This document shows positions 2,115 through 19,021 of a stretch of 19,557 bases of DNA, piece by piece; position 1 is the first letter of the stretch; the number at the start of each line of letters is the position of its first letter. The notes under the pieces were generated by a model, which searched no databases, had not been told where the DNA came from, and saw only the letters and a program-made list of their open reading frames with translations. The translations under genes and the position numbers were made by a program. The stretch is taken from positions 1 to 19,557 of IMG/VR virus record IMGVR_UViG_2529293142_000017; one strand, given 5' to 3'. This stretch comes from a virus. Lineage: Duplodnaviria; Heunggongvirae; Uroviricota; Caudoviricetes.

Positions 2115-2177
2115 TTTTCTGCTGCCGCAAAATCGGCAGCCGGGCGTGGAAACCCGAGCAATTCACAGGCGACATAT

Positions 2178-3331: not shown

Positions 3332-3510
3332 CCCGGAAATCACCCCGGATAACAGTTACCGCAATTATCTGTAAATTAAAAAACGACCCCCGAAAAATTA
3401 AATGTGCGTATTCGCGCAGGGATACGCACGTCTTCAGGAGACGCAGATATGCCTTATCAGTTAATGCAACCGGCACGGAATGCAGTCATCTGTCACAGGG
3501 AGGAAAACAA

Positions 3511-3831: not shown

Positions 3832-3845
3832 AGGAGAACAACACC

Positions 3846-6179
3846 ATGAAAATGAACGTAACCGCCACCGTCAGCCATGCACTCGGCCACTGGCCGCGTA
3901 TCCTCCCGGCGCTGGGGATTCAGGTGCTGAAGAACCGTCATCAGCCCTGTCCGGTCTGTGGCGGGAGTGACCGCTTCCGTTTGGATGACAGGGAGGGGCG
4001 CGGCACCTGGTACTGCAATCAGTGTGGTGCCGGTGACGGCCTGAAACTGGTTGAAAAGGTGTTTGGTGTTTCCCCGTCCGATGCGGCCGCAAAGGTGGCT
4101 GCCGTGACCGGCAGCCTGCCCCCGGCTGACCCGGCAGTGACGGCTGCCGCCGGTGCTGAAACAGACGCTGCCCGGAAGAACGCCGCCGCACTGGCACAAA
4201 CCCTGATGGCGAAAACCCGTCCCGGAACCGGTAACGCCTACCTGACCCGCAAGGGCTTTCCCGGCCGGGAATGCCGGATGCTGACCGGCACACACAGAGC
4301 CGGTGGCGTGAGCTGGCGTGCCGGTGACCTTGTGGTGCCACTGTATGACGACAGCGGCGAACTGGTTAACCTTCAGTTAATCAGTGCTGACGGCCGTAAG
4401 CGCACCCTGAAAGGCGGACAGGTCAGGGGCACCTGTCACACCCTTGAAGGACAGAATCAGGCCGGAAAACGTCTGTGGATAGCGGAGGGATACGCGACCG
4501 CACTTACCGTGCATCACCTGACCGGTGAAACGGTGGTGGTGGCGCTTTCTTCCGTGAATCTCCTTTCTCTGGCCAGCCTTGCCCGGCAGAAGCATCCGGC
4601 CTGTCAGATTGTCCTTGCTGCTGACCGTGACCTCAGCGGTGACGGCCAGAAAAAAGCCGCCGCAGCCGCAGATGCGTGTGAAGGTGTTGTTGCCCTGCCG
4701 CCGGTCTTCGGTGACTGGAATGATGCCTTCACGCAGTACGGCGGGGAAGCCACCCGTAAGGCCATTTATGATGCCATCCGGCCACCGGCTGAAAGCCCGT
4801 TCGACACCATGAGCGAAGCGGAGTTTTCCGCCATGAGTACCAGCGAAAAGGCCATGCGTATCTATGAGCATTACGGCGAGGCGCTCGCGGTCGATGCCAA
4901 CGGCCAGCTTCTGTCCCGCTATGAAAATGGTGTCTGGAAGGTGCTGCCGCCACAGGACTTTGCCCGGGATGTGGCCGGGCTGTTTCAGCGTCTGCGCGCG
5001 CCGTTCTCCTCCGGGAAGGTGGCCTCCGTGGTGGACACCCTGAAGCTGATTATTCCGCAGCAGGAAGCCCCCTCCCGCCGCCTGATTGGCTTTCGTAACG
5101 GCGTGCTCGACACGCAGAACGGCACGTTCCACCCGCACAGTCCGTCACACTGGATGCGCACCCTGTGTGATGTGGATTTCACCCCGCCAGTGGAAGGGGA
5201 AACGCTGGAAACCCACGCCCCCGCGTTCTGGCGCTGGCTTGACCGTGCCGCCGGTGGCCGTGCGGAAAAACGCGACGTGATTCTGGCCGCACTGTTTATG
5301 GTGCTGGCAAACCGCTACGACTGGCAGCTCTTTCTGGAGGTGACCGGTCCCGGCGGCAGCGGCAAAAGTATCATGGCCGAAATAGCCACCCTGCTGGCCG
5401 GGGAGGATAACGCCACATCGGCCACCATTGAGACGCTGGAATCCCCGCGTGAACGTGCCGCGTTAACTGGCTTCTCACTGATACGCCTGCCGGACCAGGA
5501 AAAATGGAGCGGCGACGGTGCCGGACTCAAGGCCATCACCGGCGGCGATGCGGTGTCCGTTGACCCGAAATACCGGGATGCGTACTCCACGCACATCCCG
5601 GCGGTGATTCTGGCCGTGAACAATAACCCGATGCGCTTCACCGACCGCAGCGGCGGCGTGTCACGCCGGCGGGTGATTATTCACTTCCCTGAACAGATAG
5701 CCCCGCAGGAGCGCGACCCGCAGCTTAAGGACAAAATCACCCGCGAGCTGGCGGTCATCGTGCGTCACCTGATGCAGAAATTCAGCGACCCGATGCTCGC
5801 CCGGTCACTGCTTCAGTCCCAGCAAAACTCAGACGAGGCGCTGAACATCAAACGGGATGCCGACCCGACGTTTGATTTTATCGGCTATCTGGAAACCCTG
5901 CCGCAGACCAGCGGCATGTATATGGGGAACGCCAGTATCATCCCGCGCAATTACCGTAAATACCTCTATCACGCCTATCTGGCCTACATGGAGGCAAACG
6001 GCTACCGGAATGTACTCAGTCTGAAAATGTTCGGGCTGGGGCTGCCGGTGATGCTGAAGGAATACGGACTGAATTACGAGAAGCGCCATACCAAACAGGG
6101 GATACAGACCAACCTGACGCTGAAAGAGGAAAGCTACGGCGACTGGCTGCCAAAATGTGACGACCCTGCAACAATCTGA
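3846..6179 (+). CDS. alpha: P4 alpha-type multifunctional replication protein (zinc-binding primase, TOPRIM, P-loop helicase, C-terminal origin-binding region)
   Basis: 777-aa ORF with AAGGAG RBS. N-terminal CPVCGG...CNQCG zinc motif, EGYATALTVH (TOPRIM-like) and Walker A VTGPGGSGKS. Same length as P4 alpha, and flanked downstream by iteron repeats. Confidence 0.95.
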   Translation: MKMNVTATVSHALGHWPRILPALGIQVLKNRHQPCPVCGGSDRFRLDDREGRGTWYCNQCGAGDGLKLVEKVFGVSPSDAAAKVAAVTGSLPPADPAVTAAAGAETDAARKNAAALAQTLMAKTRPGTGNAYLTRKGFPGRECRMLTGTHRAGGVSWRAGDLVVPLYDDSGELVNLQLISADGRKRTLKGGQVRGTCHTLEGQNQAGKRLWIAEGYATALTVHHLTGETVVVALSSVNLLSLASLARQKHPACQIVLAADRDLSGDGQKKAAAAADACEGVVALPPVFGDWNDAFTQYGGEATRKAIYDAIRPPAESPFDTMSEAEFSAMSTSEKAMRIYEHYGEALAVDANGQLLSRYENGVWKVLPPQDFARDVAGLFQRLRAPFSSGKVASVVDTLKLIIPQQEAPSRRLIGFRNGVLDTQNGTFHPHSPSHWMRTLCDVDFTPPVEGETLETHAPAFWRWLDRAAGGRAEKRDVILAALFMVLANRYDWQLFLEVTGPGGSGKSIMAEIATLLAGEDNATSATIETLESPRERAALTGFSLIRLPDQEKWSGDGAGLKAITGGDAVSVDPKYRDAYSTHIPAVILAVNNNPMRFTDRSGGVSRRRVIIHFPEQIAPQERDPQLKDKITRELAVIVRHLMQKFSDPMLARSLLQSQQNSDEALNIKRDADPTFDFIGYLETLPQTSGMYMGNASIIPRNYRKYLYHAYLAYMEANGYRNVLSLKMFGLGLPVMLKEYGLNYEKRHTKQGIQTNLTLKEESYGDWLPKCDDPATI

Positions 6180-6195
6180 CCCTCATGACTCATCT

Positions 6196-6219
6196 GACCG
6201 GCATCTGCCGGTCTTTTTT
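6196..6219 (+). terminator. Rho-independent terminator after alpha
   Basis: GACCGG-CATCTG-CCGGTC hairpin followed by T6, 17 nt after the alpha stop. Confidence 0.6.
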
Positions 6220-6238
6220 ATCCCTGAATTCCCCGAAG

Positions 6239-6536
6239 GTGAACAATCCACTGTTCACCCTTCACCGTGTATTCACCCGTTATCACACTGAAATTAAAAG
6301 AGAAAAACGAAAGGTGAACAGTGTGAACAATCAAATCAAAAAAAACTTTTTTTTCTCCCTGTGTGATTTCAGTACGGGGGATTAATCACCGGTATGAGTC
6401 ACACCGGCAGAATGCCGGAGGTGAAGAATCGAATGTTCACCCTTCACCCATTATTCACCACCTATCATACTGAAATAAAAGGAGAAAAAGAAAGGTGAAC
6501 AGTGTGAACAGTTCTTCCGAAAAAAATTTTTTCTTA
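6239..6536. repeat. Two ~120-bp direct repeats, each with several TGTTCACC/GGTGAACA iterons (crr-like cis replication region)
   Basis: Copy A is about 6239-6358 and copy B about 6420-6536, roughly 60 bp apart and about 85 percent identical by eye. Each holds GGTGAACA, TGTTCACC, TTCACC and TATTCACC variants plus GGTGAACAGTGTGAACA, and each ends in an A-run/T-run tract (A8-C-T8 and A7-T6). Confidence 0.7.
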
Positions 6537-6651
6537 CTTTTAATTGTGTAAAAAACAGGCGATGCGCGCAGTGTGTATAGATATGTGTATAGTTATATTT
6601 TTTGAATATAATAATATCTTATAAATCAATGCTTTAACTTGCAATATTCAT

Positions 6652-6669
6652 TCCTATTATCGGCACCAT
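6652..6669 (+). repeat. Attachment-site core copy (left): 18 bp identical to 19004-19021, with the form of a tRNA 3' end
   Basis: TCCTATTATCGGCACCAT reads as T-stem 3' half, acceptor 3' half, discriminator A and CCA. No D arm or anticodon arm lies upstream, so it is a partial tRNA copy. It sits about 115 bp after the crr-like repeats. Confidence 0.7.
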
Positions 6670-7274
6670 CAAGAAAATCAATAACTTAGCTTAACTTCTC
6701 TAAGAAATTGTATCTTCTGTTATCACTTACAAACGCCTATACGTTGTTATGGGCTTTGGTAGTGTAACACGTATGGGCGAGTAGTTCCCAAGCTCAACCT
6801 CGTAACAAGTTCCTTTGAAGCTGGAAGACGTGCCACCGTCTCTAAACCTTCTACCAAAACTCTTAGCAAGATGTTCCACACCTGGCGCGGTGTCCAATGA
6901 TGCTACACGTCGTGAGACGTTGCAGAGGATAAACAGGCTAAATGATGGGAAGAGTTTTAAGTGCAATAGTGGATTAAAGCCCACCTCTTCAAAACCTAAC
7001 TTGATCGGGAAAGAATCAAGCTCTAGCACGGTTTCGTCCACCGGAGTACAACGGGTGCCTGATAAGAGAAGAACTGCTAAGACTTCATAGCTTTTGTGAA
7101 AAAGCCCTTTTTAGTGGATACGCCTACGGCGCTTATTTTTTGGTATAACCATCAAAGGCGCTTTATGGCTTCTATTGTCTTGAAAATGTATCTTTACTTG
7201 TATTGTGTTTTATGCGTAGTCTCCCTGTGTAGTATGTAACTTGTTAATTTTCATATGAATACAGAGGCAACACG

Positions 7275-7433
7275 ATGAAAAACATTGCAGCTATAAAACG
7301 TAATAACCGCAAGATTCACGCTCGTAAGTTCCTGTCTACGCCAGAAGGAAAAGCCTGGTTAGAGCGTAAACAGAGAGAGAACGAAGAAAGAAAACTCCTT
7401 AGTGAGTTGAAATGGCTTAGAGAGGATTTCTGA
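7275..7433 (+). CDS. Possible small basic protein (52 aa), not in the supplied ORF track
   Basis: AGAGG 7 nt before ATG 7275. Encodes MKNIAAIKRNNRKIHARKFLSTPEGKAWLERKQRENEERKLLSELKWLREDF, a charged helical peptide. Too short for compositional support. Confidence 0.3.
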   Translation: MKNIAAIKRNNRKIHARKFLSTPEGKAWLERKQRENEERKLLSELKWLREDF

Positions 7434-7700
7434 AAATCTCCAGAACGCAACAGGACGCATTCTAACGCTGTTTTCATTGCTTGATATAGGGATGTATAGG
7501 TGGTGTGTGTTTAATGCGTCTGTGAGCTTGTTTTGTGCCTTATTTTGCATTTTCATAATGCAGAAGAGAACACGGAAAGCCTTAAAATTAATTATTTGGG
7601 TATTTAAGGCTATTTTCAGGTTATTTAAGGGTATTAAACTTGATTTAATTGGTTGAAATATAAACAGATAGTTCTGTATCTTATTGATTTATAAGGTTAT

Positions 7701-7780
7701 TTTTAAATAAAGGTAAATAAAAAATAAATAGCCATAAATAGCTATAAATACATCTAAATACCTATAAATCCCTTTGAATA
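7701..7780. repeat. Eight tandem 10-bp units ending in ATAAATA (helically phased A/T repeat)
   Basis: ttttaaataa, aggtaaataa, aaaataaata, gccataaata, gctataaata, catctaaata, cctataaatc, cctttgaata. The exact 10-bp period predicts intrinsically bent DNA. Confidence 0.6.
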
Positions 7781-7884
7781 CATATGAAGCCCTTCCCTTA
7801 TGGCTAGATTGCGAGAGGTGCTTAACGCGATTTTCAGCGCCCCCCGATCTGGAAAATCCAGAATCCCCAAATATCAAGGAGGCA

Positions 7885-8424
7885 TTACGCCTCCTCTTCT
7901 TCCTTCTTAATTCGCTGTACCGTCGAAGGAGCAACATTAAAGATCTCGGCGGTTTTACGCACTGACAGGCCATCAGAAAGGGCTTTCTTTATACCTTCTC
8001 TATCTACTGCTTTTCCATTACCACGCTTTGTAGGATTGACGGCTTGCGCTTCTCGTTTACGTTCTAACATCAGTTCACGTTCACACGTTGCCACTGCCGA
8101 CAACATAGTAAGCATCATTTTTCCCATCGCGCTTGTAATGTCAGCAATGATCCCTTCTTTGTGAAATCGAACAATTACACCACGATTATTAAGCTCTTCC
8201 ACTAAAGCAAGAATGTCTAAGGTGTTACGCCCTAAACGGTCGAGAGAGTGCACGTGTAAGGTGTCGCCTTCTCTCAGATAGGATAAACACGCCTGCAATC
8301 CTGGACGGTTAGTGTCTTTACCTGACAGCTTATCTTCAAAGACTTTATCAAGCGTTACTCCTGCAAGCTGGCGATCAGTGTTCTGATCTACAGTGCTCAC
8401 ACGCTTATAACCGATATTGCTCAT
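7885..8424 (-). CDS. Serine recombinase of the resolvase/DNA-invertase family (179 aa)
   Basis: N-terminal GYKRVSTVDQNTDRQ catalytic-serine motif, internal SLDRLGRN, and C-terminal HTH (TAEIFNVAPSTVQRIKK). AAGAGG RBS before ATG at 8424. Confidence 0.9.
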   Translation of the reverse strand: MSNIGYKRVSTVDQNTDRQLAGVTLDKVFEDKLSGKDTNRPGLQACLSYLREGDTLHVHSLDRLGRNTLDILALVEELNNRGVIVRFHKEGIIADITSAMGKMMLTMLSAVATCERELMLERKREAQAVNPTKRGNGKAVDREGIKKALSDGLSVRKTAEIFNVAPSTVQRIKKEEEEA

Positions 8425-8439
8425 AAAATCCTCTTAATG

Positions 8440-8560
8440 TATCGATTTGGCACTACTTCAATGCAAATGAGTATATCGTATTCATTTGGTCTGTTTCAAG
8501 CCTTATAGGTACGGAATATTACACGATTTAGCTGTATTCATTTGGTATGCCTAATGGATA
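8440..8560. promoter_or_regulatory. Candidate recombinase target or regulatory region with TTTGG-type repeats
   Basis: Direct repeats GTATTCATTTGGT at 8478 and 8535, and imperfect palindromes ATTTGGCA-N-TGCAAAT (8446-8470) and ATTTGGCA-N25-TGCCAAAT (8621-8661), immediately upstream of the recombinase start, where res or inversion sites usually lie. Confidence 0.25.
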
Positions 8561-8994
8561 CACAGGGGAATAGATTAAATGGTGTTCTGTTTATACAGGT
8601 TTATTTGTTAGATCAACAATTTGGCATTTCTAAACAGATGTTTGAACGTTGCCAAATGTCTTGACAACACAAGAAAAGGGCTTGCTATGCCACGCATTAC
8701 ACGAAATAAGGCTGTAAAAACAAAATAAATTTTAAAATTTGCACAAACGAGAAAACTCATTCGACAAATAATAGATTAATTTTTAGCCAACAATTTCTGA
8801 TGGTGCTCTGTAAGCCGCATTACACAAGGCTTTGCGAAAGTGATGTAAAAGTGAAGAAAGTTAACATTGCTCTTTTAAGCTACTTTTTCATTGAATTTTT
8901 AGTATGGAATTACACAGGAATAAGTTAGGGATATTCTATGATTTACACAGGGAATATAGGGGGATTATGGCACACACATAGAAAGGCATTACAC
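8518..8994 (+). repeat. Dispersed direct repeats of ATTACACAGG(A)ATA-type motif, at least 6 copies
   Basis: ATTACAC at 8518, 8696, 8819, 8909 and 8988, TTTACAC at 8942, plus ATACACAGGGGAATAG at 8558. Inverted copies (GTGTAATT) at 9476, 9530 and 9581. AATTACAC-N12-GTGTAATT forms a perfect inverted pair at 9510-9537. Confidence 0.5.
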
Positions 8995-9256
8995 AGAGTG
9001 AGTGCTATGTGACAAATGGATGTAACGAGAGGTTACATTCAGCTATCTGAAATGCTCTTTGTAAGAAAGTTGGTAGTAACGGTAGGTCATAGTGAGCTAG
9101 GGGGTAGGTCACTGTGAACTACAATAAGACTATTAATAAAACTATATTAGATTATTAATTAGATCATAATAATAATATTCTTTATATCTATATATATATG
9201 ATCTTTTGCCTTCCGGCGTTAGCTTCACTCTCTGGCAAGCAACCTTACTCCGCTAC

Positions 9257-9352
9257 CTTTCGGGCTTCGTGGCTGGCCCGTTCCGCTCACACCGAAAGCA
9301 AAGCGTTACTTTCTTCGTGTAACTATCGTTGGCGGTAACGCCCACGAAGAAA
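9257..9352. other. GC-richer island of interleaved inverted repeats inside AT-rich non-coding DNA
   Basis: CTTTCGG (9257) pairs with CCGAAAG (9292); GCGTTAC (9303) with GTAACGC (9335); TTTCTTCGTG (9310) with CACGAAGAAA (9343). The last two pairs cross each other, giving a pseudoknot-like or alternative-hairpin topology. Confidence 0.4.
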
Positions 9353-9631
9353 TACTATTGCGCTGTGCGCAGTAAGAGTAATCACCTAACCAATCATACT
9401 GATTGCTTACGTGTTAACTCTCTCTAACTCTTAATTACCCTCCTACATTTAATAACTCTGTTATTCTCTGTAGTTGTGTAATTACTCGAAGAGAGAGCGG
9501 CTAAAGCTCAATTACACTCTGCTTTCCTCGTGTAATTTCACTAAGCCTCAATACAATTTCACTTCCTACATTCTGTAGTCGTGTAATTGTTTTCGGTGGA
9601 AAAGCCAGAGGCGACACCGAAAGAGAATTCT

Positions 9632-9695
9632 GATCTTATTAATCTTATCTATCTTAGTTAATCTTCTTACTTATCTTACTTAATCTTTATCTACT
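9632..9695. repeat. Phased ATCTTA repeats (about 7 copies, 9-10 bp period) starting with a GATC 13-mer-like element
   Basis: GATCTTATTAATC at 9632-9644 resembles the oriC-type 13-mer class (GATCT + AT-rich), followed by aatcttatct, atcttagtta, atcttcttac, ttatcttact, taatctttat. Confidence 0.45.
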
Positions 9696-10223
9696 TTATT
9701 ATTAATAATAGCTTTATAAGCTCTCTGTAGCTCTCTGACGCAAGAAACAGCATTCAGGAAGGGAATCACCTTAGAAAAGTGTTCTTTGCGTCATAATGTG
9801 TTTTATGAAGGATTCAGAGGTGTTTCATAACAGGAATGTATAGAGGATACGTTAGGTAATTAAAAATAAGGGGTCTAAATGCTTCTCTAACAGCATTAAG
9901 CAGGGTAGGGAATGGAAACGCATTGCCTACATATATAATCTCACTACAGAGCTTTACAGAGCGTTTTATAAAGTGACTCTCTATCTTATATCTACCATCA
10001 CCTTTTTATATACCTAACAAATACCAAATAAGCCCCTTAAATAAGCCTCTGGCGAGCTAAACAGCCATTACATAAGGGAATGTATTGCTTTTATCAAAAC
10101 TTCGTTAGAACGCGTTTTAGAGCGTTTTAGACAATAATGAAGAATAGCACTACACAGAAGAGCACGAATTGCTAAGAAAAAATGTAAGTGCATGAAAAAG
10201 ATCAGATTTTTTGTGAAAAGGTA

Positions 10224-10252
10224 TTGACAAATGTTTCTTTATATGTAATAAT
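10224..10252 (+). promoter_or_regulatory. Candidate sigma70 promoter for the plus-strand small-gene operon
   Basis: TTGACA (10224-10229), 16-17 bp spacer, TAATAAT (10246-10252), about 110 bp upstream of the first gene. Confidence 0.5.
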
Positions 10253-10361
10253 AGGTATTAGAGGGACAGAAAAACATTCTTCTCTAAATAATCAAAATCA
10301 ATGCACTTTGAAGCCGTCAGGCTTGCAAGGTGTTTTTCTTTTAACTGAATAAGGAGTTTTT

Positions 10362-10550
10362 ATGAAATGGTTTACACCGAAACACGTCGTCGAGGCATTT
10401 AAAAAAGGTGAGCTAACACGCCACCAGGTAGTAATGAACCGTAATATGGCAAGGAGTCGAGGTTATCCAGAGCGAGCAGCTTGCTTCAATGAAGCACTCA
10501 AGATTATTGATGAACTAAGAAAAAATGAAAAAGAATCTGAAACAGAGTAA
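10362..10550 (+). CDS. Hypothetical small protein (62 aa)
   Basis: AAGGAG RBS 5 nt before ATG. First gene after the promoter. Basic and helical. Confidence 0.5.
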   Translation: MKWFTPKHVVEAFKKGELTRHQVVMNRNMARSRGYPERAACFNEALKIIDELRKNEKESETE

Positions 10551-10569
10551 AGAATAGAAGGAGAAAACT

Positions 10570-10740
10570 ATGAGCGAAACTACAGAAAAGAAAAGACAAC
10601 CACGCACTTGCTTTCATATTCCTGATGAAGTATTTCAGGTGTTGTTTAAAGAAGCCAGAAGTAGACGTATCACTGTTACAGATTACATTCTTGATATGTT
10701 GAAAAGAGAGGCTGAAACACTCTCAAATAAAAGCAAGTGA
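10570..10740 (+). CDS. Probable ribbon-helix-helix (Arc/MetJ/CopG-like) DNA-binding protein (56 aa), not in the ORF track
   Basis: AAGGAG RBS 7 nt before ATG 10570. RTCFHIPDEVFQVLFKEARSRRITVTDYILDMLKRE fits a beta-strand plus two helices. Confidence 0.5.
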   Translation: MSETTEKKRQPRTCFHIPDEVFQVLFKEARSRRITVTDYILDMLKREAETLSNKSK

Positions 10741-10793
10741 TTTTTATCACCATAGTAGCGCCGTAGAGCGTGATTACATCAAGGAGATTTTTA

Positions 10794-11483
10794 ATGATTA
10801 ACCAACTAACTTTTACAAAACACTATGACACGTTTGATAATGTATCAAAGATTTATTCTGATAAATTCCCTCAAGGAAAAGATTTAGATCTATTACATAT
10901 TGTGCTTTATTTTCGATTCCTTAGTTATCAGGAAAACAACCTTAATTGTTATGAAAGTCACGAAACATTAGCTAAGATTTTTAAGTCTTCAGCGTCAACA
11001 ATTAAACGTAAGATAAACGATCTTAAAGAGATGGGATTATTAGAAACATCCCCACATCCTGATCCGTATATTTCATCTTTGATTTACAATGCTCTCCCTC
11101 TCACAGATGCACATATTACTCCCCCAGGAGAATCATCACTCTCTGATCTTTCTGAGGCAGCAGAAGCACAGGAACAACCTAAAGGCCATAAACAGCCTTC
11201 TTTTGATGTTCTTGATGATTGGGATGCGCCTTTGCCGTGGGAGACGGAAGAAACACCTGTTTCATCAAGTGAAAAGGTAGCTAATGATAATGAGGAGGAT
11301 GTGTTAGAGAATTTTGCCTCTCTTATCTGCCAGCAGAAACACACCAGAACAGGAGGGGCATCATTTATAGAATTTGCAAATTCACTAGCTTATAGACACG
11401 GGCTAAAACGACCAAATGGTATTGAGGCATATTTTTCTAAGAATTACCCAAATGTGTATGATGACTTTGATATTCCATTTTAA
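10794..11483 (+). CDS. Winged-helix DNA-binding protein with acidic C-terminal region (229 aa); candidate replication initiator or regulator
   Basis: AAGGAG RBS 7 nt before ATG 10794 (the track's upstream GTG start would cover the RBS). HTH-like segment ESHETLAKIFKSSASTIKRKINDLKEMGLLE. Acidic Ser/Glu-rich C-terminal half. Confidence 0.7.
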   Translation: MINQLTFTKHYDTFDNVSKIYSDKFPQGKDLDLLHIVLYFRFLSYQENNLNCYESHETLAKIFKSSASTIKRKINDLKEMGLLETSPHPDPYISSLIYNALPLTDAHITPPGESSLSDLSEAAEAQEQPKGHKQPSFDVLDDWDAPLPWETEETPVSSSEKVANDNEEDVLENFASLICQQKHTRTGGASFIEFANSLAYRHGLKRPNGIEAYFSKNYPNVYDDFDIPF

Positions 11484-11494
11484 TAAGGAGGGTT

Positions 11495-11773
11495 ATGATT
11501 CAATATTTAGTAAAAAATCAAGTAGACAGAATTCAGTGTAATGACACAGGAAAACGCATCTACGAAACACTTGCTTACCTCTATAAAGGAAAGCCAACAC
11601 CGCTAAAATATAGCGATGTGTTACATCGAGCAGGGTGCTCTGAAGATGGTTTAAAATTCTGGCTGAAACAGCTATCAAATTTCGGTGTTATAGAGATTAA
11701 AGAATTATCTTTCTCTACATTCAATCTCAAAAGACTGGATAAAGAAATAGTATTCATCTATTCCACTCTCTAA
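11495..11773 (+). CDS. Hypothetical protein (92 aa), possible small HTH protein
   Basis: AGGAGGG RBS directly upstream, 11 nt after the previous stop. The YSDVLHRAGCSEDGLKFWLKQLSNFGVIEI segment looks HTH-like. Confidence 0.6.
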   Translation: MIQYLVKNQVDRIQCNDTGKRIYETLAYLYKGKPTPLKYSDVLHRAGCSEDGLKFWLKQLSNFGVIEIKELSFSTFNLKRLDKEIVFIYSTL

Positions 11774-11905
11774 AATCTCTCTATGTAATTAAAATATAAA
11801 AGGAAAACATTATTATGATAGTAGCTATGTATTGGTTATTGTTCTTTCTCACGTTAGAAACATATTTCGGGGTGTTTTCCTTTAAAAGAAAAGGAAAAGT
11901 AAATA

Positions 11906-12313
11906 ATGGCAAAAAGAAAAAACAACGTTGTTAAGAAAATCGGTGATTCAGCTTCTCTTCTAAGTAAACCTAAATCTATTCTAAGACGTAAAGACTTTAA
12001 AGAGCTAGTTACGCTCTCCAAGCAAAATAGCGCCCCTGGCGAATGGAAAACAGAGATCATAGAACATTCTCCCTCTGTGCCTTGTGGAGATGAATTTAAC
12101 GCCTTACAAGAAATCTTATCTTCAACACCTGGCGTATTCTGGAAACCTAGAAAAAGAAAAGAGTATATTGTTGATAGCTCTGATTTACGCAAATACCAGA
12201 TTTTAGGATTTGAAGACTATAACCACTACGTTGGTTATCTCGCCACCAATGGCCTAAATAATTTAGTTCCTGAATTCCATTTAGATAATGATGATCACTA
12301 TGGAGACTTTTAA
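11906..12313 (+). CDS. Hypothetical protein (135 aa)
   Basis: AAAGGAAAAG RBS region before ATG. Basic N-terminus (MAKRKNNVVKK). Same strand and codon style as neighbours. Confidence 0.6.
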   Translation: MAKRKNNVVKKIGDSASLLSKPKSILRRKDFKELVTLSKQNSAPGEWKTEIIEHSPSVPCGDEFNALQEILSSTPGVFWKPRKRKEYIVDSSDLRKYQILGFEDYNHYVGYLATNGLNNLVPEFHLDNDDHYGDF

Positions 12314-12314
12314 T

Positions 12315-12653
12315 ATGAACAAAAACACGTATGATACAATTTACTCACTAATTAATTATTATGAGGATGATTACCTCCTGCCTTTAAACCGCGCTGAACT
12401 TGAAGCATATAAAGAAAATACACCATCGGCACTAAATGAGGCGTTTAAACACTGGGATCTAGCTGTGAATGCCTTGGAGCACCTCTTTAAGCGTGTAGAG
12501 ATGCTCTGTAAGCGCGAAAACGCATATCTGACAGCGGATCAGATATGGGAGCTATCAAACTGGATAGAAGATATTGAATCTGATGTTCGCTATGTGGGAG
12601 ATGGCCTTATCGAACTCGCACAACGCTTAGGCGCTGCTATCACAGAAGAATAA
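12315..12653 (+). CDS. Hypothetical protein (112 aa)
   Basis: GGAG 9 nt before ATG 12315, which lies 1 nt after the previous stop. The track's earlier start (12288) overlaps the upstream gene and has no RBS. Confidence 0.6.
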   Translation: MNKNTYDTIYSLINYYEDDYLLPLNRAELEAYKENTPSALNEAFKHWDLAVNALEHLFKRVEMLCKRENAYLTADQIWELSNWIEDIESDVRYVGDGLIELAQRLGAAITEE

Positions 12654-12682
12654 AAAAAGCAACAAAAAAGTTGTAAAATATC

Positions 12683-12711
12683 TTGACATTTCATATATTG
12701 TATGTTAATAT
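12683..12711 (+). promoter_or_regulatory. Near-consensus sigma70 promoter (TTGACA-N17-TAATAT)
   Basis: Hexamers at 12683-12688 and 12706-12711 in the intergenic gap after the 112-aa gene. Confidence 0.55.
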
Positions 12712-12909
12712 AATTATATGGGGTGATTATTTTTCCTTTATTGGTTCGATATTAAAAATTCTTCTTGTCGTTAAAGGGGAGTAAAATCTCCGCTCCCCGC
12801 TTCTCCTCCTTAAGTAAATACTGTGTCATTATTACCTCTTTTTTCCTTTGTTATGCATACATCTTGGAGTATGCATAACATAGGGTAATTACATAGGTAC
12901 AAGTTAATA

Positions 12910-12941
12910 AAAGGCGGCTCTAAATGCTGCCTTTTATTTTG
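12910..12941 (+). terminator. Intrinsic-terminator-like hairpin ending a ~200-nt ORF-free leader
   Basis: AAAGGCGGC-TCTAAAT-GCTGCCTTT (9-bp stem with one G-T) followed by TATTTTG. Lies between the strong promoter and the next gene start at 13003. Confidence 0.5.
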
Positions 12942-13002
12942 CCCGTTATGCAACTTAAAAGTTGTATTTCTTACTTTAAACAAGGTAACAAGGTTTATAT
13001 AA

Positions 13003-13215
13003 ATGTTGTTTTTAAACGATAAAGAGCAAATCATCAAGTATAAAGATGAAATGCTGAAAATTAATCCACAAATTACCGAAATGGTAGCTAAATACGCTGG
13101 GTGTTCTGTCGAGGAAGTAGAAAGATGTGTTGAAAAATATTTTTCTCCTTCTTCTCCGTCTACACCTTCCCTTAATGAATTAATCAAATTAAAAGCTAAG
13201 GAGATTACTAAATGA
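13003..13215 (+). CDS. Hypothetical small protein (70 aa)
   Basis: Weak RBS (AAGG about 12 nt upstream). Stop overlaps the next start (ATGA). Confidence 0.45.
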   Translation: MLFLNDKEQIIKYKDEMLKINPQITEMVAKYAGCSVEEVERCVEKYFSPSSPSTPSLNELIKLKAKEITK

Positions 13216-13574
13216 TTATTGATTTAGACACTCTATTTCCAGTTCGAAAGACTTTCACAGATATTGTAAGTTATTGTACTGATCCGTTTGCCTCTGTAGA
13301 AAGCAAGGTTTTTGCTTCTCTTCCTGCTGATGTTGAATGCGGAGACTTGATCACCAGCACTGGCGCTAAATATGAATCAGGAGATGATATCTATGTTGTT
13401 ATGAGTGAATTTTTAACGGCTGGAGAAAATAAGCCTGTAGATGTTTTACGTAGCAATGCTGGCCTTGTCTGCATCAAATCTGATGCGCTGAATGCTGTAA
13501 GTGAAGCAGCAAAAACAGCATTAATTAAAAAAGGCTTCCAGCTTGAAGGGTTCCATTCTGTTTTCACTTCTTAA
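13212..13574 (+). CDS. Hypothetical protein (120 aa)
   Basis: AAGGAG RBS 8 nt before ATG, overlapping the previous stop. Acidic protein. Confidence 0.6.
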   Translation: MIIDLDTLFPVRKTFTDIVSYCTDPFASVESKVFASLPADVECGDLITSTGAKYESGDDIYVVMSEFLTAGENKPVDVLRSNAGLVCIKSDALNAVSEAAKTALIKKGFQLEGFHSVFTS

Positions 13575-13592
13575 TAAAAGGAATAATAATAA

Positions 13593-14621
13593 ATGATTTT
13601 AGGTAATGATTACGTTGATTTAGCTCCTCTGTTCTCTGCGCATAGCACTAGAAACTATCTGCTTTCTACTCTTGATTTTACGGATTCTGTAGGGGTTACA
13701 TCTCATAAAGTAGCTGTTTCCCAGCTTGTCGAAAGCAACGAATCTCTGTTCAACAAAGAAACCTCTCGTTTCTCTTCTGAACACAACGTTACTAAGCGTG
13801 AACAAGGCAAAGAATATCTTATCGAAATCCCGTACTTTTTAAGGCAAGACCTGATCAAACCGCAGGACGTGCAAGGCAAGCGTAAGCCTGGCACTGATTT
13901 TCAGGAAACACTCACTGATATCTATGCTGACTATGTTGCTAAACACCACGTAGCGTATCAGCGCACTAAAGAAAGCGTATTGGCTGCTTCTTTGTTTAGT
14001 GGTCGCACCTATACCCCGAAAACTGACGATGTTCTTATCGAGTGGGGCAAGCTGTTTAACGTATCAGCTATGAAAGCCACTGTGAACGCTTCCAGCACTG
14101 ACACCACGAAGATTTTTAAAGAATTTGATCAGATTGCTACGAATATTATCGACAGAGCACAAAGCCAGGCGGCTGCTGTAGAAAGAATTGTTGTTTTCTG
14201 TAAACCTGACGCCTTCTCTGCAATTCGATTCTCTGCTGGTATGGCAAACGCATTCCAGTATGTAAGCCCACTGGAAGAGGGGAATGTTGTGTATCAGCGT
14301 CGTGACCTGCTGCCAGGGGTGACAGCGTTCACTATCCCAGGAACTAACATTGATGTTGTTAAACTGGTAGATCCGCTACACCTTGCACATATGACCGCAG
14401 ACGCTGTAGCTGTTCCGAAGTTTGCTAAAGGCTCTAATGTATATCAGAACATCTACGGGGCTGCTTCCAGCACCTTTGAACTGATTAATGCCGCTCCTGC
14501 TGAGGTGTACAGCTATAGCTATGAATCTTCTCGTGGTGATGCTGTTAACGTTGTTACAGAGAATAGCCAGATGGTGGTAAACCACGGCGTTGGCTTCTCT
14601 GTTCAAATCACTGTTAAATAA
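13593..14621 (+). CDS. Hypothetical protein (342 aa) with virion-structural-like composition; candidate major structural protein
   Basis: RBS-like AAAGGAA before ATG. Rich in Ala/Ser/Thr/Val/Asn with no Cys-rich or nucleotide-binding motifs. Followed by a strong terminator, as is common after highly expressed structural genes. No family recognised from sequence. Confidence 0.8.
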   Translation: MILGNDYVDLAPLFSAHSTRNYLLSTLDFTDSVGVTSHKVAVSQLVESNESLFNKETSRFSSEHNVTKREQGKEYLIEIPYFLRQDLIKPQDVQGKRKPGTDFQETLTDIYADYVAKHHVAYQRTKESVLAASLFSGRTYTPKTDDVLIEWGKLFNVSAMKATVNASSTDTTKIFKEFDQIATNIIDRAQSQAAAVERIVVFCKPDAFSAIRFSAGMANAFQYVSPLEEGNVVYQRRDLLPGVTAFTIPGTNIDVVKLVDPLHLAHMTADAVAVPKFAKGSNVYQNIYGAASSTFELINAAPAEVYSYSYESSRGDAVNVVTENSQMVVNHGVGFSVQITVK

Positions 14622-14640
14622 CATTTTAACGTGTAATAGA

Positions 14641-14673
14641 GGCGTGGCGTGTATTCACGCTTCGCCTTTTTTT
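14641..14673 (+). terminator. Rho-independent terminator
   Basis: Nested GC stem (GGCG...GCGTG-TATT-CACGC...CGCC) followed by T7, 20 nt after the 342-aa gene stop. Confidence 0.65.
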
Positions 14674-14707
14674 ATTTATTTTTTAAATTTTGAGAGGTGA
14701 TTAAAAT

Positions 14708-14911
14708 ATGGAAGTGATTCTGAAATCAAAAAATGGTGTACACGTACATTTAGATGCTAATGATTCTAGAGGATTGTTAAATCTGAAATATCTATGTTCT
14801 CTCCTAGATGTTCCATATGAAGGAGTAAAAGCCCGTATGTTCAGACTAAACGAGAGTATTGATCAAGCTCTACACCATTTCTTAAGTAAAGAAGGTGGTA
14901 AAAATGATTAA
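14708..14911 (+). CDS. Hypothetical small protein (67 aa)
   Basis: GAGAGGTGA RBS 7 nt before ATG. First gene after the terminator. Confidence 0.5.
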   Translation: MEVILKSKNGVHVHLDANDSRGLLNLKYLCSLLDVPYEGVKARMFRLNESIDQALHHFLSKEGGKND

Positions 14912-14925
14912 TAAGGGGATTTTAA

Positions 14926-16755
14926 ATGTTAGAAATTAACACTTCTAAAATTAAGAACACAGTTACATTTAGTGTAGATAAAGACAGCTTGAAAAAAGCG
15001 AAAGACTCTATTACAGGCTTAAAGGAATTCGCAGAAAATATCAAGCCAGCTAAATTAAGGTTTGATAATGTCACTAAAGGCTATAAGAAAGCACAAAACG
15101 AAGTAGACAAGATTGCTCAACAGAAAGCCAAAACAGAAAAACAGAATCAAAGAGCACAAGCTGCCGCAGCAAGAGCACAGGCAAGGCAACAGGCACAAAT
15201 AGCAGCACGCAAGGAGAAAGCAGAATTAAAGCTCCTTGATGTGTCAAGCTCTATCAGTGCAATGCACCGTCTCTCTGTAGCTGAACAATACAAAGCTATT
15301 GCACAGGCTAGAGAGATAGCAAAACAATATGAGCAAGGGGCTATCTCGCTTGCACGTATGAATAGCCAGATGAAACGCCTACAACAGCAACAACGTAAGA
15401 TTAATGGCAACCGAAAAGCACAATTAGCCCCCGTTAAGGGAGGATCAGGGAATTCCGCCACTATGGGCGCTCTGTTATTTGGAGGCGCTACGGCTGCTGC
15501 TGGCGTGATGGCTGTTAGTAAAGCCTCTGAATTTATGGCTAATAGCTTCGCTAACGCAGAGACACAAGGAGAGCTAATTCAACGTGCAAGGCTTGGCGGT
15601 GTAGACGTTAACCAGATGTATAATATTACAGAATGGGCGTATAAAAACGGCGTTGACTCTATGATGGGTGATCAAGGGGCTAGAAAATACCTGGATCAGA
15701 TGAAAGATGTTAGGGAACGTGCCGCAAAATCCTACAGTGAAGCTGAATTGGTGAAAGATAAGAAAACCGGAAAATCTGAATGGAAAGGCGGTGATAACGC
15801 TATTAATGAACTTCTAAACATCGGTGTTATTAACAAAAGCGACCTTAAAAAATTTGCTGATAATCCAGCCGGATTAATTTCTAAGGCTGTTAATGGAATG
15901 ATGAAAAAAGGGTTTTCAGACTCCCAAATTGGACAACGTTTAGAAGACCTGGGCGATGATTTGATGCTTACGTCAAAATATTGGCAACGTTCCGTTAAAG
16001 ATGTACAAGAAAGTATTAATCAGCAAAAAGCCTCTGGAAAATGGCTAACAGAAACACAGCAAGAATCTATCGTTAAATTCAGAGAACTAAACAGACAGCT
16101 TTCACAGCTTTCTGATGCAAGACAAGTAGCATTTGTAGACGGCTTTATGAAATCTCTCGATCCAAAAGTAACGGAAGAGTTTTTGAAAAACCTTTCTAAT
16201 CTCACTCCGTATTTTACGAAGCTGGGAGAAGCTACAGGAAGTCTCTTTGAAGCTATTATGAAGATTGTAAACTGGTTTAATCGTAATGATGATAAGACAG
16301 ATGCTATTCAGAAAAATTTAGGTGATGCACCGCCTTTGAGTAATGAAGGGATGAAACAGCATCTTTCTAATCTCGTTCCTGACCAATATAAAGGCGCTGG
16401 CACTGCAACAACTACACCTGATAATAGTCATTCTCTCTTTAACACGATTAAGGGATTGCTTTTCGATGATAATTCTTCTGTGTCAGATGTAAAAATGTCA
16501 GTCAATGAAGCACCGATAACCAATCTCAAACAGGGTGCTTTAAATAATCTTGCAATGACAACTCCGGCTTATAATTTATCTCCTGTGTTTAATCTGAATC
16601 CGACCTTTGAAGTGGTAACAGAGGTTCCTCTTACTATTAATTCTGACACATCAAGATTAAGCGATTATGTGGATTTTACAGCGAGAGCAAGTCGGGATAG
16701 CTTCTTGAAATCATTAACATTAACCAGCTTATCAGGACAATCCAACGGCGGGTAA
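14926..16755 (+). CDS. Hypothetical protein (609 aa) resembling a tape-measure or pilot protein: basic Gln/Ala-rich coiled coil plus a Gly/Ala hydrophobic segment
   Basis: AAGGGG RBS 9 nt before ATG. Residues ~60-170 are Lys/Gln/Ala-rich helix (QKAKTEKQNQRAQAAAARAQARQQAQIAARKEKAE), followed by GALLFGGATAAAGVMAV. No signal peptide and no enzymatic motif recognised. Confidence 0.8.
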   Translation: MLEINTSKIKNTVTFSVDKDSLKKAKDSITGLKEFAENIKPAKLRFDNVTKGYKKAQNEVDKIAQQKAKTEKQNQRAQAAAARAQARQQAQIAARKEKAELKLLDVSSSISAMHRLSVAEQYKAIAQAREIAKQYEQGAISLARMNSQMKRLQQQQRKINGNRKAQLAPVKGGSGNSATMGALLFGGATAAAGVMAVSKASEFMANSFANAETQGELIQRARLGGVDVNQMYNITEWAYKNGVDSMMGDQGARKYLDQMKDVRERAAKSYSEAELVKDKKTGKSEWKGGDNAINELLNIGVINKSDLKKFADNPAGLISKAVNGMMKKGFSDSQIGQRLEDLGDDLMLTSKYWQRSVKDVQESINQQKASGKWLTETQQESIVKFRELNRQLSQLSDARQVAFVDGFMKSLDPKVTEEFLKNLSNLTPYFTKLGEATGSLFEAIMKIVNWFNRNDDKTDAIQKNLGDAPPLSNEGMKQHLSNLVPDQYKGAGTATTTPDNSHSLFNTIKGLLFDDNSSVSDVKMSVNEAPITNLKQGALNNLAMTTPAYNLSPVFNLNPTFEVVTEVPLTINSDTSRLSDYVDFTARASRDSFLKSLTLTSLSGQSNGG

Positions 16756-16786
16756 TTCCCGCCATAACATTACAAGGAAAATTATT

Positions 16787-17500
16787 ATGGCAACGGCGGG
16801 AATTTTAACCATACGATCAGCAAATACTCCAGAACAACACGTTCAGGCTGTTTACAAAGCAGAACAAGATATAAACTCTACAAAAAACGAAAATAGCAAA
16901 GCTAATAAAACAAAAGGAGAGAACGGATTTGCTATTGTTACCAGTGGACTGGCATCTTCTGGCAATGACGTTTATGAAAATTATATGGCACTGGCCTTTG
17001 ACAGTGTTGACGACGTGAACGTGAGACGTTCGGCAGATGTTACAAGCTACCCCGTAGAAAATGGTGCTACTGTGTCTGATCACGTTCAAATTAAAAACAA
17101 TAAATTTTCTCTTAAAGGAAGGATCACTGAAACACCGATTAAAAGCGATCCTGGCTTGTTAAAGAGTGCAGGGGTGAACGGGAACAGAAGATCATTAGCT
17201 ATCGACTACCTGAATCAGATTATGGACAGTAGACAGCCTTTTCTTCTTGTTACAGAAAATAAAACTTTTGAGAACGTTGTTTTAACAGGCATCGAATACA
17301 CAGAAGAGGCAAGCGAATCCCTGGTATTTGATCTTAGCTTTGAGCAGATCAGGCTCGTTTCGTATGGCACTGTAAACACTGTAGCTCTCAAAACACAGCC
17401 ATCTAAGAACATTGGGGCTAATATGAAAAAACGTGTTAACACTGAAAAATCAAGTAGTGAAGGTGAAGACACTATTACTCCTGCCTTTAAACAGGAATAG
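16787..17500 (+). CDS. Hypothetical protein (237 aa), structural-like, co-transcribed with the 609-aa gene
   Basis: AAGGA RBS about 9 nt before ATG, 31 nt after the previous stop. Beta-rich composition (VTSYPVENGATVSDHVQIKNNKFSLKGRITETPI). Confidence 0.8.
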   Translation: MATAGILTIRSANTPEQHVQAVYKAEQDINSTKNENSKANKTKGENGFAIVTSGLASSGNDVYENYMALAFDSVDDVNVRRSADVTSYPVENGATVSDHVQIKNNKFSLKGRITETPIKSDPGLLKSAGVNGNRRSLAIDYLNQIMDSRQPFLLVTENKTFENVVLTGIEYTEEASESLVFDLSFEQIRLVSYGTVNTVALKTQPSKNIGANMKKRVNTEKSSSEGEDTITPAFKQE

Positions 17501-17542
17501 CTGTAAATGCCTCTAAAACGCTCTGTAACGATGTAATTATAA

Positions 17543-17573
17543 AAGAGGCTACCAATCTATGTTGAAGCCTCTT
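17543..17573. terminator. Hairpin between convergent genes (possible bidirectional terminator)
   Basis: AAGAGGC-N17-GCCTCTT with flanking A/T, between the 237-aa gene stop (17500) and the integrase stop (17582). Confidence 0.45.
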
Positions 17574-17581
17574 TATTGCGT

Positions 17582-18946
17582 CTATGGCGTTGTTTTACGC
17601 CTTAAATTTGATTTTTTATTGATTGATAAGCCTTTCTCTATTTCAGGGTAGCGTAGAAGCTCAATATATTTTTTAAGCTCTACTGGAGAAGCTGCATTCT
17701 TGCTATATGTGCGGAATGTCTCTGTATTACCGCGTGTATGGCCCAGGAGAAGGGCGATCCTGTCTTCTGGAATTTGATTTCGATCAAGAAGCTGTGCTAC
17801 TCCGTGTCTCAGAGAATGAAACACCTTCCTTTCTGTTCCCTTTTCCCCTAAAGCCTTTCGTTTAGCTCTTGTAAATCTCTGCGTGTGCCACGTGGAACGT
17901 TTACCATCAGCACGCTCTGTAATGCTGGCGTGATAGAACAAAAAGCCATTGTGAGGCTTTTCACGAAGAGATAACACCAATGGAGTGATAAGGCTATGCA
18001 CAGGCACAAGACGTGCCGCAGCTTTCGTTTTTCCCTGTGTGATTTCAAAACACAGCACACCTTCGATCTCTTTCACATCGTCTATTGTGAGACTTGCTAT
18101 CTCATTGATCCGCATACCTGTATAAGCACCGATAAGACACAAAGCCATCATTTCTTTGTTTTCTGCTGAATTACCGGAAAATACTTGCAACACTTGCAAT
18201 AGCTCTTTGTTAGAAAATGCCTCATAGCTCTCTCTACTTTGTGCCACATCAAGCCTATGCCCTCGCCAGGGGGAGAGCGCCCTTTCTGGCGCATCGTGGT
18301 AACGTGATGAAGCTAACTCCCATAGCTGGGCCATTGGGCTGATATAATTTGCAATTGATTGTTGTGAAAGGGTTTTTTGCATGTGTTCAATCCAGCCTGT
18401 AACAGTGGTGCGGCTCACATCTTGCAATGCAATATCAGGCTTTTTACGGTAGGAGAGAAACATCTCTACCGCTTTTCTTGCCTTAGCTAAAGTGGCTGGC
18501 TTCTTCTTCGTGCTGTTAATTGTCAGGTAGATTTCAAGAATTTTAAGCAATGACGGACACGAAGACGCTGTATCTTGCACTCTGGTAGCTGTTTTGGCGT
18601 ATTTAGCCTTACTGCGTAACAGTTCCAGCGTGTTCTCTATTGTGCTGTTTACAGGAGCGACACTCTCCCGTAAACAATGGTATTCATCTGCAATCTGATC
18701 ACGCTTTCTACGTGCAACACGAAGATTACTTGTGTGTAGACTTCTGACAAACGTCCTTTTTCCTTCAAAAAAGGGCTGCATATACACAGGCAACGTGATC
18801 CTCAAATAGTAGTTACCGTAAGAATCACAGATTATGTATTGATTGGGCTTGTATCTCATAAACTCCCCGGCTAAAGTGTCGGAGCGTTTGTAATGTGAAA
18901 ATTGATTGTAACGCATAGAAAATGATAATTTTTCTATAAGATTCAA
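17582..18946 (-). CDS. Tyrosine recombinase / integrase of the P4 type
   Basis: C-terminal catalytic region with HSLRHGVAQLL and LLGHTRGNTETFRTYSK (R-H-R-Y architecture), and an N-terminal arm-binding-like domain. The track start is TTG at 18946; ATG at 18859 with a GGGGAG RBS is a more likely start (about 425 aa). Reads away from the adjacent att core. Confidence 0.9.
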   Translation of the reverse strand: MNLIEKLSFSMRYNQFSHYKRSDTLAGEFMRYKPNQYIICDSYGNYYLRITLPVYMQPFFEGKRTFVRSLHTSNLRVARRKRDQIADEYHCLRESVAPVNSTIENTLELLRSKAKYAKTATRVQDTASSCPSLLKILEIYLTINSTKKKPATLAKARKAVEMFLSYRKKPDIALQDVSRTTVTGWIEHMQKTLSQQSIANYISPMAQLWELASSRYHDAPERALSPWRGHRLDVAQSRESYEAFSNKELLQVLQVFSGNSAENKEMMALCLIGAYTGMRINEIASLTIDDVKEIEGVLCFEITQGKTKAAARLVPVHSLITPLVLSLREKPHNGFLFYHASITERADGKRSTWHTQRFTRAKRKALGEKGTERKVFHSLRHGVAQLLDRNQIPEDRIALLLGHTRGNTETFRTYSKNAASPVELKKYIELLRYPEIEKGLSINKKSNLRRKTTP

Positions 18947-19003
18947 TCAATTAGTAATGGTCGTAGGTGATGGCATTAACACGAGATTAATCGAGTGTTT
19001 TAC

Positions 19004-19021
19004 TCCTATTATCGGCACCAT
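19004..19021 (+). repeat. Attachment-site core copy (right): 18 bp identical to 6652-6669
   Basis: TCCTATTATCGGCACCAT, then AAAATCAA shared with the left copy after a 1-3 nt difference. A 10-mer GGTCGTAGGT resembling a tRNA T-arm lies 35 bp upstream (18959-18968). Confidence 0.7.

Follow-up and report, generated by a model that had tools for sequence, protein, structure and literature searches.

The window analyzed here is a 19,557-nt stretch of viral DNA (positions 1 to 19,557 of IMG/VR record IMGVR_UViG_2529293142_000017). Judging from sequence comparisons, positions 6652-19021 are a discrete 12.35-kb integrative element, inserted by its own tyrosine integrase through site-specific recombination in the tRNA gene thrW, at a 3'-end stretch of 17-18 bp. 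We interpret this inner element, which lies in tandem with a P4-like satellite, as a member of a satellite family of virulent phi92-like (Stephanstirmvirinae) myophages, with a probability of roughly 0.6. The interpretation is a genomic one, and induction, replication, packaging, and small-capsid formation are predicted from sequence. Integration and replication modules are present without a complete set of morphogenesis and packaging genes, a generic feature of satellites. Four independent lines of evidence point to phi92-like phages: structural homologues, a copy of the phage genome terminus, DNA exchange, and chimeric phage nucleases.

Structural genes related to phi92

The capsid module (13003..14663, plus strand) comprises o70, o120, the major capsid protein gene (13593-14621), and a terminator (14639-14663). 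The major capsid protein matched the Pfam family Phage_cap_E (PF03864) with 52.4 bits against a cut-off of 22.9, and a search of its profile against all solved structures in the PDB gave Phi92_gp124 as the best match (3.8e-20). Its structural model, with a predicted local distance difference test (pLDDT) score of only 58, gave Foldseek matches to HK97-fold myophage capsid proteins (E 1e-12), and at the level of this model the protein fits an HK97-type fold. The AlphaFold model of the 120-aa protein encoded upstream of the capsid gene was unusable (pLDDT 45), and BLASTP and PDB profile searches found no similarity between o120 and the phi92 decoration protein gp123.

The tail module (14708..17500, plus strand) consists of o67, a tape-measure-like protein gene (14926-16755), and a gene for a Dit-like tube initiator (16787-17500). 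The tape-measure-like protein matched phrog_16051 (3e-53), and its sole PDB match was Phi92_gp134 (9e-39); it is 609 aa long, compared with 659 aa in phi92. The best PDB match of the Dit-like protein was Phi92_gp135 (21vq_N; 2e-78, 60% identity), and the order from tape measure to tube initiator is that of gp134-gp135 in phi92. The 67-aa protein o67 showed no similarity to phi92 gp133. For all three recognizable structural genes, the best or only relatives with solved structures are therefore phi92 virion proteins (gp124, gp134, and gp135). Pfam and PHROG scans of the inner element detected no portal, terminase, protease, AlpA, primase, or lysis genes.

A diverged relative in an enterotoxigenic E. 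coli (ETEC) strain of serotype O6:H16, here L006, carries in the capsid position a gene (L006:9912-10943) whose product is only 16% identical to the window capsid protein, together with tape-measure and integrase genes that are clearly homologous. The capsid module appears, from these comparisons, to have been swapped between family members.

Copy of the phi92 genome terminus

Positions 7803..7848 (plus strand) hold a 46-nt copy of the phi92-type genome-terminus region, 95.7% identical to phi92 363-318 and lying across the inner boundary of the annotated direct terminal repeat (DTR; 1-343). The core of the copy (7808-7836) reads TTGCGAGAGGTGCT^TAACGCGATTTTCAG, the phage terminal repeat being annotated as ending at ^, and window positions 7823-7848 equal the last 26 nt of the phi92 genome. 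Klebsiella phage phi1_175008, in which 343 bp are repeated exactly at the two ends and the flanks share only 73% identity with phi92, carries the identical 29-nt core at the same boundary. The motif matched many Stephanstirmvirinae records, and in phage muut it falls within the intergenic region of 1.8 kb where the genome ends are located. It is present in most close copies of the element and is kept in E. coli strain A7, although the adjacent recombinase gene is deleted there. We propose from these matches that 7803..7848 is a packaging or cleavage site.

Several further observations concern the surroundings of this motif and its phage counterpart. Just upstream, at 7591-7632, two tandem 21-nt repeats resemble the motif center (GGTRYTTAASG..ATTTTCAG; 81% identity to 7817-7837), and at 7713-7770 units of the ATAAATA type recur every 10 bp, so spaced that the DNA could be intrinsically bent; the packaging machinery may use both features as accessory sites. 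A second short match to the same phage intergenic region was found at 9858-9879 (22 nt, 95%; muut L007:3798-3819, phi92 near 147355). Its order and orientation with respect to the terminus motif agree with those in the phage; at E 0.002 in a search of small size, the match may mark a second cis site or be due to chance. In phage BME3 (L036; PP239276), a 342-bp terminal repeat is annotated about 72 nt away from that of phi92, in a record with N bases and duplicated end sequence, so terminal-repeat coordinates are inconsistent between records of this phage group.

DNA shared with virulent phages and chimeric nucleases

L006 and a second diverged relative, L005 (strain MJ-T), have stretches of 167-625 nt in common, at 90-98% identity, with the Justusliebigvirus phages muut, inny, and VEcB and the related phages Mt1B1_P17 (Phapecoctavirus), PaulScherrer, and BI-EHEC. 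All of these phages are strictly virulent, with genomes of about 146-151 kb. In the window itself, the 5' end of the replication initiator (Rep)-like gene and its ribosome-binding site are 94% identical at the nucleotide level to Mt1B1_P17. The L006 version of the small open reading frame (ORF) o56 is 94% identical to the phage proteins inny_185 and muut_153. This degree of identity points to recent DNA exchange between L005/L006 and virulent phages.

Three proteins of virulent Stephanstirmvirinae phages, inny_184 (L042:2733-3836), muut_154 (L043:2732-3730), and QNJ49226 of Mt1B1_P17 (L008:2542-3528), combine two winged-helix domains with a C-terminal MUG113/T5orf172 (GIY-YIG-type) nuclease domain. 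The C-terminal domain matched MUG113 (2e-4), T5orf172 (0.03), and the endonuclease family phrog_681 (2e-18). The DNA-binding domain of Rep shares 87% identity with residues 1-140 of inny_184 in the case of L006, and 75% with residues 123-230 of muut_154 in the case of L005; the phage proteins lack the C-terminal halves of Rep. The small protein encoded upstream of the phage nuclease is 94% identical to an element ORF. The full chimera was found in only four phages of the collection, and the nuclease domain alone in related Klebsiella and Raoultella phages. The nuclease Odn of phage ICP1 has been shown experimentally to cut the origin of its satellite PLE at iterons (PMC8263062). By domain composition, the phage chimeras found here fit an Odn-like architecture.

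Attachment site and occupancy of thrW

The element is bounded by an 18-bp direct repeat, TCCTATTATCGGCACCAT. The window contains exactly two copies of it, at 6652-6669 and at 19004-19021 on the plus strand, with no third copy at up to 2 mismatches and no match in a shuffle control (0/200). Comparison with related genomes showed that its first 17 bases are the last 17 of E. coli tRNA-Thr(CGU) thrW, followed by a T. Each copy is followed, after a short offset, by AAAATCAA. GC content falls from 0.59-0.63 at 3501-6000 to 0.31-0.47 at 6501-19000, and a LysR-type gene fragment lies beyond the right copy. The locus corresponds to the E. coli proA-thrW-...-yagP'-paoDCBA region, and ARAGORN found no tRNA gene inside the window. 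The flank to the right of 19021 is identical to that after the attR of K-12 CP4-6 and to that after thrW in genomes with an empty site. An earlier note on this DNA, made from the sequence alone, had described the twofold repeat, the shared bases behind each copy, the sharp drop in GC content, and the LysR-type fragment, and had stated both the match to the thrW 3' end and the order intF, thrW fragment, yagP at the end of CP4-6. All of these points were borne out, the CP4-6 order continuing into paoD.

The left repeat (6652..6669, plus strand) doubles as the attR site of the P4-like element and the attL site of the inner one; genomes carrying the inner element alone match from exactly 6652, adjoining an intact thrW. 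The right repeat (19004..19021, plus strand) is attR of the inner element and is followed by the ancestral chromosomal flank. Within 18946-19003, about 50 nt upstream of the right repeat, GGTCGTAGGT is identical to part of the thrW T-arm, with unrelated sequence in between; it may be a trace of a longer tRNA-derived repeat, as in CP4-6 with its 47-bp repeat.

The earlier note had suggested that two elements share one tRNA site and had set beforehand, as a test, the comparison with genomes that carry only one of them. In a set of 5426 complete E. coli genomes, an empty site, with thrW joined directly to the right flank, was found in 948 genomes at ≥80% coverage, several of the best at 100% identity. 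The junction of the P4-like right end, the 18-mer, and the flank was found in 142 genomes; in strain ECCRA-119, for example, the P4-like element runs directly into the LysR fragment. The inner element alone, carried for example by strain 20KM2762, was found beside an intact thrW, the match starting exactly at window position 6652 with 99.8% identity, and the tandem of both elements was found in strain A7, the only complete genome with the same tandem. Since all four occupancy states occur with exact junctions, the two elements insert independently, and the test set by the note came out positive.

Tandem occupancy of thrW is in itself ordinary, as it is already known from E. coli O157 Sakai, where Sp1 (lambda-like) and Sp2 (P4-like) occupy the site. 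The Sakai-type tandem array at thrW has been called a compound prophage (PMC8190617). In A7 (L002, near 24220-24240), one nucleotide is deleted from the right repeat (TCCTATTATCG-CACCAT), and the element lacks the small recombinase region (window 7877-8749); this copy may no longer be able to excise cleanly.

Integration module

The tyrosine integrase gene (17582..18859, minus strand; Pfam Phage_integrase, 6.5e-17) encodes a protein with an N-terminal DUF6538 domain and a SAM_5 domain; it begins just inside the right repeat copy and reads away from it. The integrase is 56% identical to that of the relative L040, 32% identical to that of L005, and 24% identical, locally, to IntF of CP4-6. No significant similarity to the P4-like integrases of A7 and Sakai Sp2 was found (BLASTP E 0.4-1.3). 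The earlier note had placed a P4-type integrase here; its position and orientation were correct, and the label "P4-type" is wrong in view of the DUF6538 domain and the lack of similarity to P4-like integrases. Likewise, the description of the inner element as having its own integrase and uncharacterized cargo holds for the integrase and not for the cargo, which is a conserved satellite-like gene set tied to phi92-like phages.

The left arm (6670..7428), which contains a 52-aa ORF (7275-7433, plus strand), is 98.5% identical to L006 and co-varies with a 99%-identical integrase; it is probably the attP arm. Since the left arm and integrase are 98-99% identical between the window and L006, whereas the interior is 70-79% identical or unalignable and the capsid-position gene has diverged, the element is modular.

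A small serine recombinase of the resolvase/invertase type (179 aa; 7885..8424, minus strand; Pfam Resolvase 7e-34, phrog_125 DNA invertase 2e-55) probably serves in multimer resolution. In other family members this slot holds a small tyrosine recombinase or nothing. A 193-aa tyrosine recombinase occupies the position of the serine recombinase in L005 (L005:7864-8442) and L040 (L040:264-845), followed by a non-coding block of about 2 kb, and the function appears, from these arrangements, to be conserved through non-homologous replacement.

Putative origin and replication initiator

An ORF-poor region of about 1.9 kb (8425..10361), which has no ORF of ≥60 aa, is the proposed replication origin. 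Around an AT-rich core near 9130-9200, it contains iteron-like ATTACACR repeats, five forward at 8518-8995 and three reverse at 9475-9587; eight of the nine matches in the window fall in this region, compared with 1.3 expected. A strong sigma-70-like promoter at 10224-10252 matches the consensus at 11 of 12 positions, and an equivalent non-coding block is present in L005, L006, and L040. At 9195-9385, a GC-rich island in this AT-rich, ORF-free region folds moderately better than shuffled sequences (z -2.2). Rfam gave no match for this island, which could encode a structured RNA or act at the DNA level as part of the origin.

Downstream on the plus strand lie o62 (10362-10550) and the weakly Arc-like o56 (10570-10740), both small ORFs conserved in family members, followed by a Rep-like winged-helix protein (10794..11483; HTH_36, phrog_270 replication initiation 2.8e-9), which is the proposed replication initiator. 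The next ORFs, o92, o135, and o121 (11495..12653, plus strand), had no Pfam, PHROG, or PADLOC match; o135 and o121 are conserved across genera.

Distribution and selection

Of the 5426 complete E. coli genomes, 239 have near-full-length copies of the element (≥80% of its length) and 772 have partial matches. The diverged relatives have the same gene order and size, L006 at thrW and L005 at a tRNA-Gly gene, and the family as a whole consists of 12-14 kb elements in Enterobacterales. The block o135-o121-o70-o120-major capsid protein-o67-tape measure-(Dit)-integrase also occurs in Buttiauxella, Kluyvera, Scandinavium, Citrobacter, and a metagenome scaffold, at different tRNA genes; the Buttiauxella member has a tRNA-Leu gene in its flank. 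Homologues of the capsid protein come almost only from Enterobacterales chromosomes or unlabelled metagenome contigs, none of them with a phage name.

The element family is under purifying selection, with ratios of nonsynonymous to synonymous substitution rates (dN/dS) between diverged members of 0.12-0.19 for the major capsid protein, o120, tape measure, and Dit genes, and of 0.13-0.15 for the capsid module.

The P4-like neighbor

The tandem neighbor (1..6651) is the right-hand part of a P4-like satellite, as also seen in the PGAP annotation of the homologous A7 locus. It contains delta (1-501, minus strand; NCBIfam Ogr/Delta), ori-like iterons (1401-1504), isrK (2121-2198; Rfam, 74.9 bits), C4/CI RNA (2306-2393; Rfam C4, 76.6 bits), the alpha primase (3846-6179, plus strand; NCBIfam P4-family primase), and crr-like iterons (6238-6501) directly to the left of the left repeat copy. 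Both iteron clusters consist of the P4 iteron TGTTCACC, which has 11 matches compared with 0.56 expected. This gene content to its left agrees with the assignment of the left repeat, in the earlier note, as the distal att site of a P4-type element. The isrK and C4 antisense RNAs with their a1/b1 targets (2108-2393) make up the P4 immunity RNA system, every match lying above the Rfam gathering threshold. The sole Rfam matches (C4, isrK, and c4-a1b1) all fall in the P4-like part, and the inner element had none.

Proposed life cycle

On the satellite interpretation, which we consider the most economical, a phi92-like phage would infect the cell, and the element would be excised by its integrase and replicated from the iteron origin by the winged-helix Rep, with the small recombinase resolving multimers. 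The helper terminase would then cut and package the element at the copied terminal-repeat boundary (7803-7848). Packaging would be into small capsids made of the element's capsid protein, combined with the portal, scaffold, sheath, tube, and baseplate of the helper and with the element's variants of the tape measure and tube initiator. Delivery to a new cell would be followed by integration at thrW. Some helpers would fight back with chimeric nucleases that reuse the DNA-binding domains of satellite Reps. The element's 12.35 kb amount to one twelfth of the helper genome, which makes it plausible that a dedicated capsid protein would form a small shell.

Several findings weigh against this interpretation. 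Many copies of the element carry insertion sequence (IS) insertions, and the right repeat of A7 has lost a nucleotide. The excised attP junction, searched as an exact pattern, was absent from IMG/VR and the JGI metagenomes, a weak negative because exact matching in assemblies was all that the search covered. The metagenome contigs, 12-14 kb in length, are integrated copies with short flanks and no terminal overlaps, and the IMG/VR capsid-gene matches, judged by their identifiers, appear to come from prophages called in isolate genomes and not from virome particles. The terminus motif was absent from the diverged members L005 and L006 in a Hamming scan, and the offset of the BME3 repeat makes the exact cut position uncertain. 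The window's own Rep allele has no close counterpart in the phages, its only tblastn match being one of 34% in phage inny, and a search for repeated phi92 promoter k-mers revealed no phage-type promoter motif common to phi92 and the element. No small terminase subunit and no excisionase or AlpA was recognized in the inner element, and the need of a satellite for its own tape measure and tube initiator is unexplained.

Alternative explanations

An integrative defense island that is not transduced would account for part of these findings. In that case, diverged copies of the capsid protein, tape measure, and tube initiator would poison phi92-like assembly, the terminus copy would act as a terminase decoy, and the host would be protected without any spread of particles. 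The structural homologues are indeed incomplete and, at 23-60% identity, highly diverged, a pattern that dominant-negative decoys would be expected to show; an apparent phage counter-measure exists, no packaged form was found, and interference with tail assembly is indicated in PMC11364771 as a known defense strategy on satellites. However, PADLOC found no match to known defense families in the element, and an own replication module and a copy of the helper terminus are hallmarks of mobilization. Known satellites also combine interference with transfer, so this explanation overlaps in part with the satellite interpretation. We consider a purely defensive island unlikely.

The element could instead be a cryptic, decaying prophage remnant like CP4-6, that is, the immobile end of a once-complete temperate phage kept by chance. 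It is without portal, terminase, and lysis genes, is AT-rich and IS-ridden in several genomes, and has its site and distal-integrase layout in common with CP4-6. Against this, family members from several genera, located at different tRNA sites, have the same compact gene set and the same size, the structural genes are under purifying selection, and the presence/absence junctions are exact. Moreover, near-identical DNA occurs in strictly virulent phages, the terminus copy is present, and searches of the phage collection revealed no phi92-like phage that is temperate. Because of the conserved family and the links to phi92-like phages, we regard a decaying remnant as improbable, more so than a defense island. 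That the 18-bp repeats are a chance or assembly artefact in an AT-rich span of ordinary chromosomal DNA, for which only the shortness of the repeat speaks, can be dismissed given the shuffle control, the identity of the repeat with the thrW 3' end, and the empty-site and single-element genomes whose junctions lie exactly at the repeat.

Comparison with known elements

In its presumed mode of action, the inner element comes closest to the PLE-ICP1 system and to P4. Like P4, the satellite of P2, the inner element is integrated at a tRNA gene, is about 11-12 kb long, has its own integrase and (here predicted) replication functions, and carries a copy of a helper packaging site (cos in P4, a putative site here); small capsids are formed by P4 and only predicted here. 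Whereas P4 re-sizes the helper capsid protein with Sid, the inner element brings a capsid protein, a tape measure, and a tube initiator of its own, and the presumed helper is a virulent 148-kb myophage with terminal repeats rather than a temperate cos phage. Membership in the P4-like group was rejected, as none of psu, delta, sid, alpha primase, epsilon, and CI RNA occurs in 6652-19021; these belong to the neighboring element at 1-6651.

The system formed by PLE and ICP1 resembles the present one in being a chromosomal island with a virulent-myophage helper, an initiator with iterons, and a phage nuclease that joins a satellite-Rep-like domain to T5orf172/GIY-YIG (PMC8263062), all of these functions being predicted ones in the present case. 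The resemblance is one of function only, with no sequence homology to PLE genes, and the phage nucleases found here carry two different satellite-type DNA-binding domains. According to PDB entry 8g1r, PLE borrows the coat protein of ICP1 and supplies the scaffold itself, whereas the inner element has its own capsid gene. The element was not assigned to PLE, since its Rep is of the HTH_36 type and its integrase a tyrosine recombinase, in contrast to the RepA_N initiator and large serine integrase of PLE.

The cfPICIs encode a full capsid set (portal, protease, head-tail connectors, and TerS) and borrow only tails. The inner element is similar in being a satellite-like island with its own HK97-fold capsid protein, as modelled, but it has only the capsid protein and small neighbors, plus tail-interior proteins that cfPICIs lack. 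Assignment to PICI or cfPICI was rejected, as AlpA, pri-rep/primase, TerS, portal, and protease were not found in Pfam and PHROG searches, and an autonomous small phage was rejected for want of a portal and a terminase. With CP4-6, the element has in common the site at the thrW 3' end, the downstream flank, and an integrase at the end far from the tRNA; the integrase itself differs, there is no common gene content, and the repeat is 47 bp in CP4-6 compared with 18-20 bp here. Sakai Sp1 and Sp2 likewise occupy thrW in tandem, one of the two being P4-like. The Streptomyces satellites MulchMansion and MiniFlayer are described as having their own encapsidation genes and as being without key replication genes (PMC10690885); on this comparison, by description only, they share the former trait with the inner element, which differs in its replication module and belongs to an unrelated host and lineage.

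Our literature search outside subscription-only journals turned up no report of a satellite for phi92, rV5, or Stephanstirmvirinae phages. We are evenly divided on the fuller claim that this is the first satellite family of phi92-like coliphages, with its own capsid protein, tape measure, and tube initiator, with packaging by terminus mimicry, and with an arms race against Odn-like origin nucleases. It would be an independent E. coli counterpart of PLE-ICP1, found here in tandem with a satellite of a P2-type helper.

Implications

Phi92-like and related phages are broad-host-range virulent coliphages that are widely collected for phage therapy. If the satellite interpretation is true, a chromosomal parasite with near-full-length copies in no fewer than 4% of complete E. 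coli genomes (14% when related pieces are included) would affect therapy outcome, host range, and gene transfer. To our knowledge, satellites of virulent phages are currently known mainly from Vibrio (PLE and PICMI), and the element would offer a tractable E. coli model for such a satellite. The chimeric nucleases would be a second, independent case of phages turning the DNA-binding domain of a satellite Rep into a nuclease against the satellite. The tandem would then represent two satellites of different helpers at one tRNA site, and the finding would raise the question of why a satellite carries its own tape measure and tube initiator.

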